A stretch of 64,000 nt of DNA from Escherichia coli (GTDB taxonomy: Bacteria > Pseudomonadota > Gammaproteobacteria > Enterobacterales > Enterobacteriaceae). Below are positions 12,523 through 24,770 of the stretch, piece after piece. The notes beneath the pieces are model-generated. The model did no database searches. It saw nothing but the letters and a program-made list of their open reading frames with translations, and was not told where the DNA came from. Every line of letters starts with the position of its first letter. Position 1 is the first letter of the stretch. The position numbers and the translations under genes are program-made. Location: assembly GCF_003019035.1 (NCBI RefSeq), contig NZ_CP027447.1; one strand, 5' to 3'.

Positions 12523-12795
12523 TTAATGCACCAGCAGGGCGGCCTGGGTAAACAGGTGAATGCAGAGATCATGCAACTGGATAATCATCCATTTGCCGCA
12601 CACGCCCAGCACCACCAGCGTGACAATCAGCCTCGGCAAAAAGCTCAGGGTCTGTTCGTTAATCTGCGTCACCGCCTGGAACACGCTCACCAGCAGGCCG
12701 ACCAGCAGGCTTGGCACCACCAGTACCGAAACCAGCAAAATCACTACTTTAATGCCGCTGGCGACAATGTCGGCGGCTACGTCTACGGTCAACAT
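12523..12795 (-). CDS. lfiQ: Flagellar export apparatus protein FliQ homologue
   Basis: 90-aa two-TM ORF in conserved fliPQR order. Confidence 0.85.
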   Translation of the reverse strand: MLTVDVAADIVASGIKVVILLVSVLVVPSLLVGLLVSVFQAVTQINEQTLSFLPRLIVTLVVLGVCGKWMIIQLHDLCIHLFTQAALLVH

Positions 12796-12797
12796 AA

Positions 12798-13550
12798 TCA
12801 GCCCAGCCCCAGCCCGCGAATGCTGGTGGTGAGCGTGCCGATGGTCAGCGACCAGCCGTCAATCAGCACAAACAGCATCAGTTTAAAGGGCAGCGAAACA
12901 ATCAGCGGCGACAGCATCATCATCCCCATCGCCATCAATACGCTGGCGACAATCAGGTCGATAACCAGAAACGGGATGTAAATCATAAAGCCAATCTGGA
13001 AAGCGGTTTTCAGCTCGCTCAGTACATAGGCGGGCACCACGATGGAGAGATCCTGGTCGGCGGCATTGCCCTTCGCGCCGCCGATGGTCATGATTTGCGC
13101 CATCGCTTTTTTGTCGGTCTGCGCCAGCATAAAGCGTTTTAGCGGCGTCGCGGCGGTGCTTAACGCATCGGTCAGGGTAATCCGATCGTTTTCGAACGGC
13201 ACCACCGCGTGGTCGTAAATATTGAGCCAGATGGGGCGCATCACCAGCAGGGTGAGTGAGAGCGCAATACCTATCAGAATGCGGTTCGGCGGCGTTTGTT
13301 GCAGCCCCAGCGCCTGGCGCAGCAGCGACAGCACGATAATAAAGCGCGTAAAGCAGGTCATCATCAGCACCATCGTCGGCAGCAAACCGACGAGGGTCAT
13401 CAGAATCAGTACCTGAATTTTGACGCTGTACTCCTGAGTGTTGCCGTGGGTCACCACGTTAAGTAGCGCAATATCGCCACCCTGGGCCAACGCCAGCGGC
13501 GCAAGCGCCAGCAGCCCAAGGCCCAGCGCCAGTTGAGTGCGGCGTTTCAT
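12798..13550 (-). CDS. lfiP: Flagellar export apparatus protein FliP homologue
   Basis: 250-aa ORF with signal peptide and FliP family membrane core. Confidence 0.9.
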   Translation of the reverse strand: MKRRTQLALGLGLLALAPLALAQGGDIALLNVVTHGNTQEYSVKIQVLILMTLVGLLPTMVLMMTCFTRFIIVLSLLRQALGLQQTPPNRILIGIALSLTLLVMRPIWLNIYDHAVVPFENDRITLTDALSTAATPLKRFMLAQTDKKAMAQIMTIGGAKGNAADQDLSIVVPAYVLSELKTAFQIGFMIYIPFLVIDLIVASVLMAMGMMMLSPLIVSLPFKLMLFVLIDGWSLTIGTLTTSIRGLGLG

Positions 13551-21599: not shown

Positions 21600-22004
21600 A
21601 TGAAAACGGTCATCACCTTCGGCACCTTCGATGTGTTTCATGTCGGTCATCTGCGCCTTTTACAACGCGCCCGCACGCTGGGCGAACGGCTGCTGGTCGG
21701 CGTATCGTCCGACGCCTTAAATATCGCCAAAAAGGGCAGAGCACCGGTTTACCCTCAGGATGACCGCATGGCGATTATCGCCGGGCTGGCGTGCGTGGAT
21801 GGCGTATTTCTCGAAGAATCGCTGGAGCAGAAAGCGGAGTATTTGCGCGGGTACAGTGCGGATATTTTGGTGATGGGCGATGACTGGGCAGGGAAGTTTG
21901 ATAGCTTTGCGTATATTTGTGAGGTGGTGTATTTCCCCCGTACGCCGTCGGTGTCGACGACGGGGATTATTGAGGTGATTAGGGGGAAATCAGCAACCTA
22001 CTGA
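21600..22004 (+). CDS. Glycerol-3-phosphate cytidylyltransferase (TagD-like, makes CDP-glycerol)
   Basis: N-terminal ...ITFGTFDVFHVGH... (HxGH nucleotidyltransferase motif) and ...MGDDWAGKFD...CEVVYFPRT.SVSTTGI... closely parallel Bacillus TagD as recalled. Confidence 0.8.
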   Translation: MKTVITFGTFDVFHVGHLRLLQRARTLGERLLVGVSSDALNIAKKGRAPVYPQDDRMAIIAGLACVDGVFLEESLEQKAEYLRGYSADILVMGDDWAGKFDSFAYICEVVYFPRTPSVSTTGIIEVIRGKSATY

Positions 22005-22052
22005 TTTAATTCCCGAAGTGAGAGAAGATGATGCCGTTTGGCTATGTTAAAT

Positions 22053-22155
22053 ATGTTTAAAAAATCGCGTTTTTTCGACATATCCCCAAAACATGTCGAT
22101 GGCATAAACGTATTCCAACGACATGTTTAAAAATCGCATTTTATCGACATATCCC
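22053..22155. repeat. Two imperfect 33-bp direct repeats 70 bp apart, containing a TCGACAT/ATGTCGA inverted motif
   Basis: ATGTTTAAAAAATCGCGTTTTTTCGACATATCCCC (22053-22087) and ATGTTTAAAAATCGCATTTTATCGACATATCCC (22123-22155); second copy overlaps the stop of the minus-strand transferase gene. Confidence 0.7.
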
Positions 22156-24612
22156 TGACGATTCCTTGCCCGCCAACGTCTCCACAATCACCATCGCCGC
22201 CCGTTCTCCCGCCTTGCCATCCATAAACGCATCGCAATAGTGATGACGAATCTTCGTAAGCCGCGCCTGCACCGCACCCCAGTCAAACGCCTCTGACAAC
22301 AAATAACGCAGTTCCGCAACATCATGAGCCACCGGCAATATTTCGCGGATTCGCTGGTCGGCGCTCTCCGGCGTGGAGTAGCTTTTCTCGCCGTCGAGCA
22401 ATTCACTCATGCCCGGAAAGTCGAGCAGGATCACCCGCTTATCGACATGGATAGCATCGAAAATAAAGCCGCTGTTATCGGTCAGCACGTAATCGGCCTT
22501 TGCCAGCAGCGCCAGCGTGTGGCGGGCGGAGTCGGTGCGCTGTTTTAAATGTCTGCGCGCGAGTGCCAGCGATGCAGTTTCTTCCGGGCGCGAGCAGGTG
22601 CCGTGGTGCAGTTTGCAAATCAGGTTCACATCATCGCTTAAGCGCCCCAATTTTTCTGCCCAGTGGGGCAGGGAGCTTAATGCGCCAAACGTTGGGGCGT
22701 AGAGCACCGTAGGTTTACGGGAATCGGGTTGAATATTTTCTGGCAGAATGCGGTCAAACGTGCCGTTATGCCAGGCGTCGAAGCGCGGGTTGCCGACTGC
22801 TTTTGCATTGCCGAAATGCGCCAGCGCCCGCTGGCTGTAGTGGCTGTAACACAAAATGCGCTGATAAAAACGGTTCCAGTCGGCGTGGTTCCACGTCTCT
22901 TTGGCTAAGCCGTACATGGCGCGAACGTTCACCGCTGCCAGGCCATTGAGCGCGGGCGTGTGGTAGGGGCTGACCAGGCATTTCACCCGCTGACCGTGTG
23001 CCTGCATTTCAGATAAGCGCATTCCTTTAAGCTGCGGATCGTCGATGCTTTTTAGCGTCTCCAGCATTTCATCCAGAAACGGTTTAAACACGCGGTCATT
23101 GATCACCAGTGTGCAGCTCTGCCCCTGCGCCTGTAGAGCGGTGATGATTGGGCGATACAGCGAGTAGTGGAATGAGGTTTCCATAAAAAAGCCGATGGTG
23201 TTGGCGATGGGGAATGCGGATGGTTTTGTAACTACGGGTAACTTATTGAAATAGTGACTAATGTTGTCGGTCACTTTTTTCTCGATGTCACTAAAGCCCG
23301 GTCGCTGATAACTAAGGCTCGGGTAACAGGCCAGCCATTTGTCGGCGCGCAGCAGCGGCTGCCAGCACTCTTCCAGCGAGTGCTCACCGTTGCCCATCTG
23401 CTGTGCCAGTTGCGGGTAGTAGCGGCTGTTCACCAGATAAGCACACACTTTGCGGCAGTCCCGCGCGTGCACCAGCCCCGGCAAACTTTTTAGCATCGTT
23501 CCCTGCGAAATTTCGCCGCCAAGGATCATCACCTGCCAGGGAATTTTCGCCAGGCTCGCCAGCAGCGTGTTCAGCACCTGAATATGTTTCTCCTGCTTGA
23601 GAATAACCGCGTCATCTTCCAGCAGCAGATAGTTTTGCCAGCCGTGCTGTTGCGCCAGGCGCAGCGCCTGCAAGTGCGACAGGCGGCGGCCCCGTTGACC
23701 GTTTTCATCTTCACAGGCGGCAAGGCGGGTGATTTTCTCGGGCGGAATATGCAGCAGTGCCAGTTCTTCACGGATCTGTTGTAAGCGATCCGGGCGTTTA
23801 TCCAGATTGATCAATACGACCTGATCGATCGCCTGATGGTTGATCGCCTGGTGATGAGTGGCGTTATGCAGACTCAGATAAGCATTGCGGAGCAGCGGAT
23901 CGCGGACGATATCCGTAAGCGCCGCGTTTACTGGCGTGCTGGCCCCGAGAATAAAGTCTTTATCAAAGGTGTTGTGGCTGTGCGAGATACACAAAATCGT
24001 GCGCTCGCCGGGCAGTTGTAGCGGGTTAGCGCTGAAATTGTCGGTGAAACTTTTCTCTTCGCCTAAATTGCAATCGTCATCGTAGCGGTGCTTTTTCAGG
24101 TAGTTACGGTGATAGCAAAAGGTGCCGTTGAGGATGTTATGCGGGCCGAAGCTGCGGCTTTGAAAGATGCGATTGATGTGGCTGTACCAGATGGGGATCT
24201 GGTCGGAACCGGAGATGAGCGCCCGGTTTTTTTGCATCATAGCGATGGTGTAAGAGATTTTATCTGCCGGGTAGTAGTCGTCATCGTCCATGCAGAGGAT
24301 GTATTCGCCGCGCGCCAGTTCGTTGAGCATATTGCGTTTTTTGCCCAGCGGCAGTTTTTCCGGGTGATGGATGTAGCGGATGTTGAAGGCTTCCTGTGTG
24401 CCATTGGTCAGGCGGTCGATGATGTGTTGATGGCTTTGCGGGGAATCGTCGAGGATGATGAGTTCGCGGCGGTCTGCCGGGTAGTCCTGATAGCGGTACA
24501 TATAAAGCAGGTACGGCAGGAATGCGCTGCGGTTCCAGGTTGGCGTGACGACGCTGACGAACGGTTTTTCGCGCTGGGTGGCGAGTGTTTTGATAATGGT
24601 TGGTGTTGGCAT
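22141..24612 (-). CDS. Three-domain transferase: N-terminal GT2-like, central GT25-like, C-terminal TagF/TagB-like CDP-glycerol glycerophosphotransferase domain
   Basis: GT2-like VSVVTPTWNRSAF...ILDDS...CMDDDDYY; GT25-like VVLINLDKRPDRL; TagF-like LYAPTFG and VLTDNSGFIFDAI motifs; start set at MPTPTIIK because the longer ORF runs into a repeat. Confidence 0.75.
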   Translation of the reverse strand: MPTPTIIKTLATQREKPFVSVVTPTWNRSAFLPYLLYMYRYQDYPADRRELIILDDSPQSHQHIIDRLTNGTQEAFNIRYIHHPEKLPLGKKRNMLNELARGEYILCMDDDDYYPADKISYTIAMMQKNRALISGSDQIPIWYSHINRIFQSRSFGPHNILNGTFCYHRNYLKKHRYDDDCNLGEEKSFTDNFSANPLQLPGERTILCISHSHNTFDKDFILGASTPVNAALTDIVRDPLLRNAYLSLHNATHHQAINHQAIDQVVLINLDKRPDRLQQIREELALLHIPPEKITRLAACEDENGQRGRRLSHLQALRLAQQHGWQNYLLLEDDAVILKQEKHIQVLNTLLASLAKIPWQVMILGGEISQGTMLKSLPGLVHARDCRKVCAYLVNSRYYPQLAQQMGNGEHSLEECWQPLLRADKWLACYPSLSYQRPGFSDIEKKVTDNISHYFNKLPVVTKPSAFPIANTIGFFMETSFHYSLYRPIITALQAQGQSCTLVINDRVFKPFLDEMLETLKSIDDPQLKGMRLSEMQAHGQRVKCLVSPYHTPALNGLAAVNVRAMYGLAKETWNHADWNRFYQRILCYSHYSQRALAHFGNAKAVGNPRFDAWHNGTFDRILPENIQPDSRKPTVLYAPTFGALSSLPHWAEKLGRLSDDVNLICKLHHGTCSRPEETASLALARRHLKQRTDSARHTLALLAKADYVLTDNSGFIFDAIHVDKRVILLDFPGMSELLDGEKSYSTPESADQRIREILPVAHDVAELRYLLSEAFDWGAVQARLTKIRHHYCDAFMDGKAGERAAMVIVETLAGKESSGICR

Positions 24613-24660
24613 GGTGTTTGGGTGAGTTAATGGGTGAATGTGATGAATGTGCGTGCTGAT

Positions 24661-24770
24661 GCCCTCACCCCGACCCTCTCCCACAGGGAGAGGGAGAAAA
24701 CCAGCGCCGATTTTAACACCGTGCTCGATCGGTTCCCTCGCCCCTTTGAGGAGAGGGTTAGGGGGAGGGG
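24661..24770. repeat. Two GC-rich hairpin repeat units (24661-24696 and 24735-24770) between the transferase gene and the upstream 309-aa gene
   Basis: CCCTCTCCC-ACA-GGGAGAGGG and CCCTCGCCCC-TTTG-AGGAGAGGGTTAGGGGGAGGGG; same family as 5193. Confidence 0.6.

Follow-up and report, generated by a model that had tools for sequence, protein, structure and literature searches.

An orphaned repeat pair in an Escherichia coli Flag-2 locus as the probable remnant of a SoFic operator array

The 64-kb stretch of E. coli DNA analyzed here (the window) carries two near-identical, AT-rich copies of a sequence of about 33 nt between the convergent genes for a TagD-like cytidylyltransferase and a glycosyltransferase. 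This raises the question of where the pair came from and whether it does anything at this site. A sequence-only reading had pointed out the two copies and an inverted ATGTCGA between them, and had offered a pair of protein-binding sites, a duplicated terminator, or a footprint of the event that inserted the modification genes as possible explanations. The features that define the site are as follows.

21600 to 22004, plus strand: gene for a TagD-like cytidylyltransferase of 134 aa (Pfam CTP_transf_like, 1.3e-19), with last codons of the type found with the sofic cassette described below
22053 to 22086: copy 1 of the repeat, ATGTTTAAAAAATCGCGTTTTTTCGACATATCCC
22089 to 22106 and 22111 to 22128: 18-nt inverted repeat, AAACATGTCGATGGCATA and TATTCCAACGACATGTTT, 89% complementary, formed by the R box and the boundary between units 2 and 3 (see below)
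22123 to 22155: copy 2 of the repeat, ATGTTTAAAAATCGCATTTTATCGACATATCCC
22141 to 24684, minus strand: glycosyltransferase ORF (family 2; Pfam Glycos_transf_2), whose RefSeq homologues are annotated with 2472 nt

The repeat pair is real, and a chance match is excluded. Counted without gaps, the top-scoring 30-nt direct match at distances of up to 120 nt has 27/30 identical positions, whereas 300 dinucleotide shuffles averaged 17.5 and never exceeded 22. The repeat search aligned 30 nt of the two copies at 90% identity with a spacing of 69; measured between the 5' ends it is 70, owing to an indel in an A-run, and three substitutions also distinguish the copies. They share the end CGACATATCCC, and TCGACATATCCC has exactly two occurrences in the window, both in the pair, where 0.17 would be expected. 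Tandem Repeats Finder gave no report at the pair because only about 1.6 copies are present. The other two observations of the sequence-only reading held as well. The inverted ATGTCGA lies at 22093-22099, within the 18-nt inverted repeat, and the second copy does overlap the 3' codons of the transferase, as the stop of this minus-strand ORF (22141-22143) falls inside copy 2, which supplies the last four codons (G-I-C-R) as well as the stop.

The comparison of this spacer across Flag-2 genomes that had been proposed along with those observations was run, and it exposed the gene sofic plus a tandem array at the same spot. The window is itself an E. coli Flag-2 locus, with 98% identity over 1.1 kb to strain E7-1N7 and 100% in the spacer. 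In a sensitive search, the 156-bp spacer matched about 290 E. coli genomes without the window allele, usually in about eight places each, and these places are consecutive units of one tandem array. At 77-88% identity, window positions 22051-22157 match the arrays that immediately precede sofic in other E. coli, including those of strains 55989, 4FM and SCU-113. The array of strain 55989 has a period of 70 and 7.4 copies (Tandem Repeats Finder), and the array end coincides exactly with the start codon of a 358-aa gene annotated as 'protein adenylyltransferase Fic'. The 358-aa protein is SoFic according to the NCBIfam equivalog NF046030 (589 bits) and PADLOC (SoFic, 3.7e-121), with the Pfam domains Fic_N, Fic and SoFic-like_C, the last a winged helix-turn-helix (wHTH) (PDB 9vjc, 3eqx). 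Known as an anti-phage system of a single gene, SoFic is a toxic AMPylase (PMC12249575), and its target is EF-Tu according to a preprint (bioRxiv 10.64898/2026.07.09.737422).

Intact arrays consist of 2 to about 8.5 units of 70 bp, the last of which abuts the sofic ATG. Read in the sense of sofic, the unit consensus is ..CA-TCGACA-N13-TGTCGA-TAAAA-N-TTTTTTAAACAT. When 18 units (E. coli, C. rodentium, Rahnella, Pantoea and the window) are aligned, 90% or more of them, up to all, agree in the columns of the core box and of the T-run/AAACAT, and the rest varies. Relative to the ATG, the boxes stand at -28, -47, -98 and -117 in E. coli, Pantoea and Rahnella. Within the units, only the proximal one has a match to a sigma-70-like consensus (GTGACA-17-TATGAT, TATTAT or TATGGT), and the -10 hexamer of this putative sofic promoter sits between the two boxes of that unit. 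Distal units keep the boxes and the T-run, not the promoter hexamers. A weaker promoter-like site, also reading towards sofic, is found at the outer edge of the array.

Several other features of the sofic loci deserve mention. The array of strain 55989 (L002 2714-3075) contains 140-bp higher-order repeats at 96% identity, which indicates that it expanded recently via unequal crossing-over. Just distal of the array and on the sofic strand, a gene for a 98-aa Xre/HipB-like HTH protein (HTH_3) is present in 55989 (L002 3132-3428) and C. rodentium (L095 786-1082). The C. rodentium locus also has a 47-aa ORF just downstream of sofic (L095 2616-2759, plus strand), antisense to a 401-aa gene; it resembles the AS1 antitoxin in size and position only, the paper on AS1 giving no sequence (PMC12249575). 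No equivalent 47-aa ORF is possible in the Flag-2 sofic allele because the cytidylyltransferase gene overlaps the sofic stop. A location of AS1 inside the array was considered and rejected, the 47-aa ORF of the C. rodentium-type locus lying downstream of sofic and outside the array. The array as a coding repeat was rejected as well, a period of 70 being no multiple of 3, and two ORFs, one of 46 aa over the window copies and one of 49 aa in distal array units (55989, C. rodentium), are in all likelihood spurious.

Set against the intact arrays, the window pair resolves into parts of two array units on the minus strand, accompanied by pieces of sofic and a rearranged glycosyltransferase end.

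21998 to 22015, minus strand: sofic 3' remnant (..R-E-L-N-Q-stop), overlapping the cytidylyltransferase stop, 96-97% identical to 4FM (L003 1338-1375)
22019 to 22048, minus strand: internal sofic fragment of 30 nt, coding for part of the C-terminal wHTH, between two deletions
22053 to 22122, minus strand: complete 70-nt unit, the homologue of unit 2, with reverse complement GTCGTTGGAATACGTTTATGCCATCGACATGTTTTGGGGATATGTCGAAAAAACGCGATTTTTTAAACAT; copy 1 is its promoter-proximal end
22075 to 22080, minus strand: F box of unit 2, TGTCGA on the sofic-sense strand
22094 to 22099, minus strand: R box of unit 2, TCGACA on the sofic-sense strand, the inverted ATGTCGA of the sequence-only reading
22123 to 22165, minus strand: partial distal unit, the homologue of unit 3, with about 13 nt of distal flank, aligning to 4FM (L003 2574-2618)
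22141 to 22173, minus strand: new glycosyltransferase tail (A-G-K-E-S-S-G-I-C-R-stop), the product of the right-hand deletion
22144 to 22149, minus strand: F box of unit 3, now Cys-Arg codons of the glycosyltransferase tail

The complete unit aligns without gaps with 17 units of E. coli, Citrobacter, Rahnella and Pantoea, is nearest to unit 2 of strain 4FM, and has both boxes with the N13 spacing and the R-N13-F order of intact arrays. The partial unit has one F box and the TAAAA..TTTTTAAACAT segment only. What the window does not have is the gene next to the array: intact sofic and the promoter-bearing proximal unit are absent, SoFic gave no significant tblastn match to the window, and no promoter-like site was found in the window units.

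How this state arose can be read from strain 4FM, in which sofic and three units lie between the same two Flag-2 genes and the sofic stop overlaps the cytidylyltransferase stop. Compared with the 4FM locus by BLAST, the window-type spacer is a three-part mosaic of the TagD and sofic ends, an internal sofic piece and the array. The 4FM segment matched by the first part (L003 1338-1375) comprises the end of the TagD-like gene and the end of sofic, in keeping with the C-terminus of the SoFic protein, ..LLRELNQ. The internal fragment matches at 97% identity (L008 41-77 against L003 1452-1488), with a further 7-bp deletion (GTCTGCC) in this window. The array part begins at the boundary of units 1 and 2, such that the promoter-bearing, ATG-abutting unit 1 is missing. 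On the other side of the spacer, about 225 bp are gone, among them a REP pair and the stop at which the glycosyltransferase natively ends. Accordingly, the glycosyltransferase ends in ..VIVETLAGKESSGICR-stop in the window allele and in ..VIVEALG-stop in all other allele classes; in the empty and cargo alleles (L005, L003, L006, L007) the REP pair follows ..VIVEALG-stop. The junctions of the scar are common to 8/8 alleles aligned, and the scar therefore arose once. Among these eight alleles, the dinucleotide at the deletion junction (22016-22017) is hypervariable (AA, CA, TC, TA or CG) and the 7-bp GTCTGCC indel (22031) is polymorphic, with all three boxes invariant.

These alignments show that the window lineage once held sofic and its array between the Flag-2 cytidylyltransferase and glycosyltransferase genes and that deletions followed. 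Nearly all of sofic was removed, along with unit 1 and its putative promoter, the REP pair and the native stop of the glycosyltransferase. Units 2 and 3 and two small pieces of sofic were left, and the glycosyltransferase now terminates inside unit 3. What the spacer records is thus not insertion of the modification genes, as one suggestion had it, but that of a sofic cassette between the two modification genes, followed by its deletion.

Variable region 1 (VR1) of Flag-2, from lfiJ to lfgN, is a hotspot for cargo genes, among them TagD and glycosyltransferases (PMC6993521), and the repeat-bearing spacer falls inside VR1. That study makes no mention of Fic or SoFic cargo or of a repeat scar; 'Fic' occurs 0 times in its text. 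Comparison of the alleles (L003, L005, L006, L007) shows the cytidylyltransferase/glycosyltransferase junction (window 21976-22180) to be a sharply bounded cargo slot. Its left edge is within the last cytidylyltransferase codons, after GAGGTGATTAGRGGG, and its right edge is just before the REP/BIME pair. As the left edge lies inside the cytidylyltransferase codons, the C-terminus differs by cargo type (131 or 134 aa): the gene measures 405 nt where sofic or its scar is present and 396 nt where the slot is empty or filled with other cargo. Two or three uncharacterized small ORFs occupy the same slot in about 600 E. coli genomes, ST131 among them, for example in ST131 strain CU568-3 (L006 1105-3493) and strain GN03551 (L007 2463-3663). 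Pfam and PADLOC gave nothing informative on the cargo of these two loci, only a sub-threshold DUF4347 and a weak PDC-M50A; given the defence gene in the neighbouring allele, they may be unrecognized defence or toxin genes. Based on a survey of 5,426 complete E. coli genomes, the alleles are distributed as follows.

Scar of the window type: about 107 genomes
Intact sofic at the Flag-2 site: 9 genomes
sofic elsewhere: 269 genomes
Empty spacer with the REP pair only: about 575 genomes
Other, uncharacterized cargo: about 600 genomes

The scar allele is about 12 times commoner than the intact Flag-2 sofic allele in these complete genomes, none of which has more than one sofic.

The nature of the parent array is suggested by work on Shewanella. 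Dimeric, not monomeric, S. oneidensis SoFic (mloA/SO_4266) binds specifically to the 100 bp that directly precede its own ATG (bioRxiv 10.64898/2026.07.09.737422). In the sequence of the bound fragment (Table S2 of that preprint) we find TGTCGA, TCGACA and TGTCGA at -67, -56 and -27, the binding having been mapped to the 100-bp fragment. The fragment ends in ATGTCGATAAAAGAAGGTTTTTTTAAAC directly before the ATG, homologous to the end of the E. coli unit, ATGTCGATAAAACGCGATTTTTTAAACAT before the ATG. TCGACA-type boxes stand upstream of SoFic genes in Shewanella, Pantoea, Rahnella, Citrobacter, Agrobacterium, Pseudidiomarina and Sutterella. The homologues preceded by boxes include those of Pseudidiomarina (65% identity), an Agrobacterium plasmid (56%), Nocardiopsis (50%) and Salmonella plasmids, and a Sutterella MAG with 47% protein identity has at least six tandem 72-bp box units. 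Homologues from Bacteroidetes, Zhongshania and Clostridia have multiple TATACA/TGTACA boxes and a recognition helix of R-[I/L/V]-TAS, not R-Q-TAS. The association of box type with the wHTH helix residue gives Fisher p = 0.0055 and 0.031 in about 20 lineages with kinship ignored. No boxes were seen upstream of two R-Q homologues (L022, L034).

Two further occurrences of box-like sequence were noted. In a Simkaniaceae (chlamydial) MAG, the SoFic homologue is preceded by a 41-bp tandem duplication (L035, about 1880-1995) carrying TGTCGG..CCGACA, a third box variant. A scan of viral contigs for phage-borne decoy arrays returned 20 matches, 0 of them beside sofic, and the idea of such decoys was rejected; most of the matches are chance-like and two look genuine. 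These two IMG/VR contigs, viral or prophage (L120, about 12780-12900; L121, about 2690-2790), have three SoFic-type boxes and TTTTTTAAACAT immediately before a non-sofic gene (no tblastn match); the box clusters may represent SoFic-type operators, orphaned or re-used, on mobile elements.

Given the above, we consider it probable, at roughly 80%, that the repeat pair is a deletion remnant of the array preceding sofic and that the parent array is an autorepression operator of SoFic, orphaned here. We infer, with good support from the homologous Shewanella fragment, from the conservation of the boxes and their covariation with the recognition helix, and from the related autorepressor CccR (see below), that the parent array likely functions as an operator. 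At intact loci, dimeric SoFic would bind the boxes via the recognition helix of its wHTH (..RQTAS..), and the bound protein would occlude the -10 hexamer and the transcription start and thereby repress its own toxic gene. The distal units may provide extra binding sites, for cooperative repression or for titration. A counterpoint to the operator model is that 70 bp is a non-integral number of helical turns. For the pair as found in the window, the idea of protein-binding sites stands insofar as the TCGACA/TGTCGA boxes conserved in SoFic arrays are present in the copies, but the cognate gene has been deleted here. Having no cognate protein, the window units are presumably inert as operators, and their only demonstrable present role is to provide the last codons and the stop of the glycosyltransferase.

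Other explanations of the array and of its remnant have to be weighed against the operator. The layout of a tandem array directly before a toxin gene is that of type III toxin-antitoxin systems, and the array could accordingly act as RNA, a ToxI-like repetitive leader or antitoxin made from the distal promoter, with the window pair as the remnant of an RNA gene. The promoter-like site at the outer edge, the foldable palindrome in the units, and the report that the protein antitoxin AS1 could not be purified (PMC12249575) all fit such a scheme. However, across the 18 units the palindrome shows no excess covariation (its percentage of paired positions was reached by 159/500 shuffles and its covariation score by 182/500), its flanks often mismatch, and the minimum-energy folds differ between units. 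There is no terminator between the array and the sofic ATG, and with Rfam 15 the window and an intact array scored far below the gathering thresholds (RgsA 15 bits vs 88, mir-43 22 vs 54). Moreover, the box sequence is kept across phyla and tracks the DNA-recognition helix of SoFic, which is a wHTH-bearing AMPylase and no endoribonuclease, and which binds the homologous double-stranded DNA fragment. An RNA array is thus very unlikely. Somewhat less so, though still improbable, is that some other protein occupies the boxes, for instance the Xre-type HTH protein or one of the host, or that the array is a functionless, recombination-prone promoter duplication. The HTH_3 gene just distal of the array in 55989 and C. 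rodentium would suit the former, but the arrays at Flag-2 (4FM) and in SCU-113, Rahnella and Pantoea are without it; being beside the array in some contexts only, the Xre-type gene cannot be the general partner. The covariation of box type with the SoFic helix and the same-box tandem arrays in Sutterella at 47% protein identity also argue for SoFic itself. Duplication without function would be consistent with the 140-bp repeats and the variable unit number, but not with distal units that conserve the boxes and the T-run while lacking the promoter hexamers.

For the window pair in particular, a relic could have taken on a new local role, as a 3'-end hairpin or terminator substitute for the convergent transcripts or as the site of another regulator. 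The REP pair of all other allele classes has been deleted here, the 18-nt inverted repeat (22089-22128) folds stably as RNA (-16.7 kcal/mol, z = -3.4), and the spacer is less variable than flanking synonymous sites among the eight scar alleles (6/104 columns vs 72/302 third codon positions, p = 2e-5), with the three boxes invariant. The duplicated terminator envisaged by the sequence-only reading nevertheless finds no counterpart in the spacer. A terminator scan of 22005-22160 came back empty, and the central hairpin, the sole stable one in the window spacer, has an A/U-rich base followed by GGGG or AAAAA, with no U-tract 3' of the stem on either strand. As to constraint, the sofic pseudogene fragment beside the units is equally invariant in the eight alleles, and divergence from the intact 4FM allele amounts to 15% in the units, against 4-9% in the flanks. 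A young spacer of single origin with recombined flanks would explain the low diversity at least as well as constraint, and a new role is accordingly unlikely. The pair might finally be one of the small dispersed repeats of E. coli that are common between convergent genes (REP/BIME, ERIC, box C or MITE-like). Its position, AT-richness and inverted repeat, and at first the several places per genome, pointed that way. But those places proved to be units of one array beside sofic, all 11/11 listed genomes with the window allele have one array-like place only and no second array, and the actual REP pair of the spacer is a different sequence, deleted here. This origin is scarcely credible.

Returning to the array as a SoFic operator, multi-unit arrays might in addition serve as a DNA buffer, tethering the toxic SoFic dimer to the chromosome, away from AMPylation of EF-Tu, in effect a DNA 'antitoxin'. 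We regard this extension as doubtful. Were it true, phage-caused degradation of host DNA or competition for the boxes would release and activate SoFic, and orphan arrays like that of the window could persist by titrating incoming SoFic.

We found no description of a SoFic box motif or of a tandem array architecture in the searchable literature, and the tandem TCGACA/TGTCGA control array is apparently a conserved and undescribed feature of the SoFic family. The array offers a defined DNA element with which to study the restraint of SoFic toxicity and its release on infection (PMC12249575). As box variants track one residue of the wHTH helix, a specificity swap can be predicted, Gln to Leu/Ile with CG to AT in the box. 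For the locus itself, the history is that of a phage-defence gene once housed inside the flagellar-modification region of Flag-2 and lost by deletion, a loss that rewrote the C-terminus of the glycosyltransferase and took the REP pair with it. The repeat pair is real but, as it stands today, ordinary: an orphaned relic donating a stop codon, informative in its pedigree.

Compared with known systems, the sofic array has several partial likenesses. In type III toxin-antitoxin systems (ToxI/ToxN, CptIN, TenpIN), tandem direct repeats also lie immediately before an abortive-infection toxin gene, but those repeats are structured RNA of 36-45 nt, cut by the endoribonuclease toxin and with a terminator before the toxin, none of which is found at the sofic array. 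In the sopC site of the F plasmid, a 43-bp unit is repeated 12 times in tandem, and SopB binds an inverted repeat in each. Like the sofic array, sopC and iteron arrays are regular tandem units of variable copy number with one inverted-repeat site each; they serve partition or replication, not a toxin promoter, and the sofic array is without such associated genes. Another likeness is with CccR, a Fic-HTH toxin of Y. pseudotuberculosis that acts as an autorepressor dimer on inverted repeats overlapping -35/-10 (PMC9755527). Like SoFic, CccR is a class II Fic protein with a C-terminal HTH domain; the two are distant (29% identity over 45% coverage; PMC9755527), and the CccR operator is single, AGATAATCAT-N26-ATGATAATCT, differing from the SoFic boxes in sequence and spacing and forming no tandem array. 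S. oneidensis SoFic belongs to the same protein family (NCBIfam SoFic equivalog). The F1 fragment of its promoter DNA, to which it binds, has the same TGTCGA/TCGACA boxes and the same ATGTCGATAAAA..TTTTTTTAAAC end before the ATG as the E. coli units, although the study neither defined a motif nor noted repetition (bioRxiv 10.64898/2026.07.09.737422). The arrays range from about two irregular units in Shewanella to regular 70-bp tandems of up to about 8.5 units in enterobacteria and, in the window, to units whose gene is gone.
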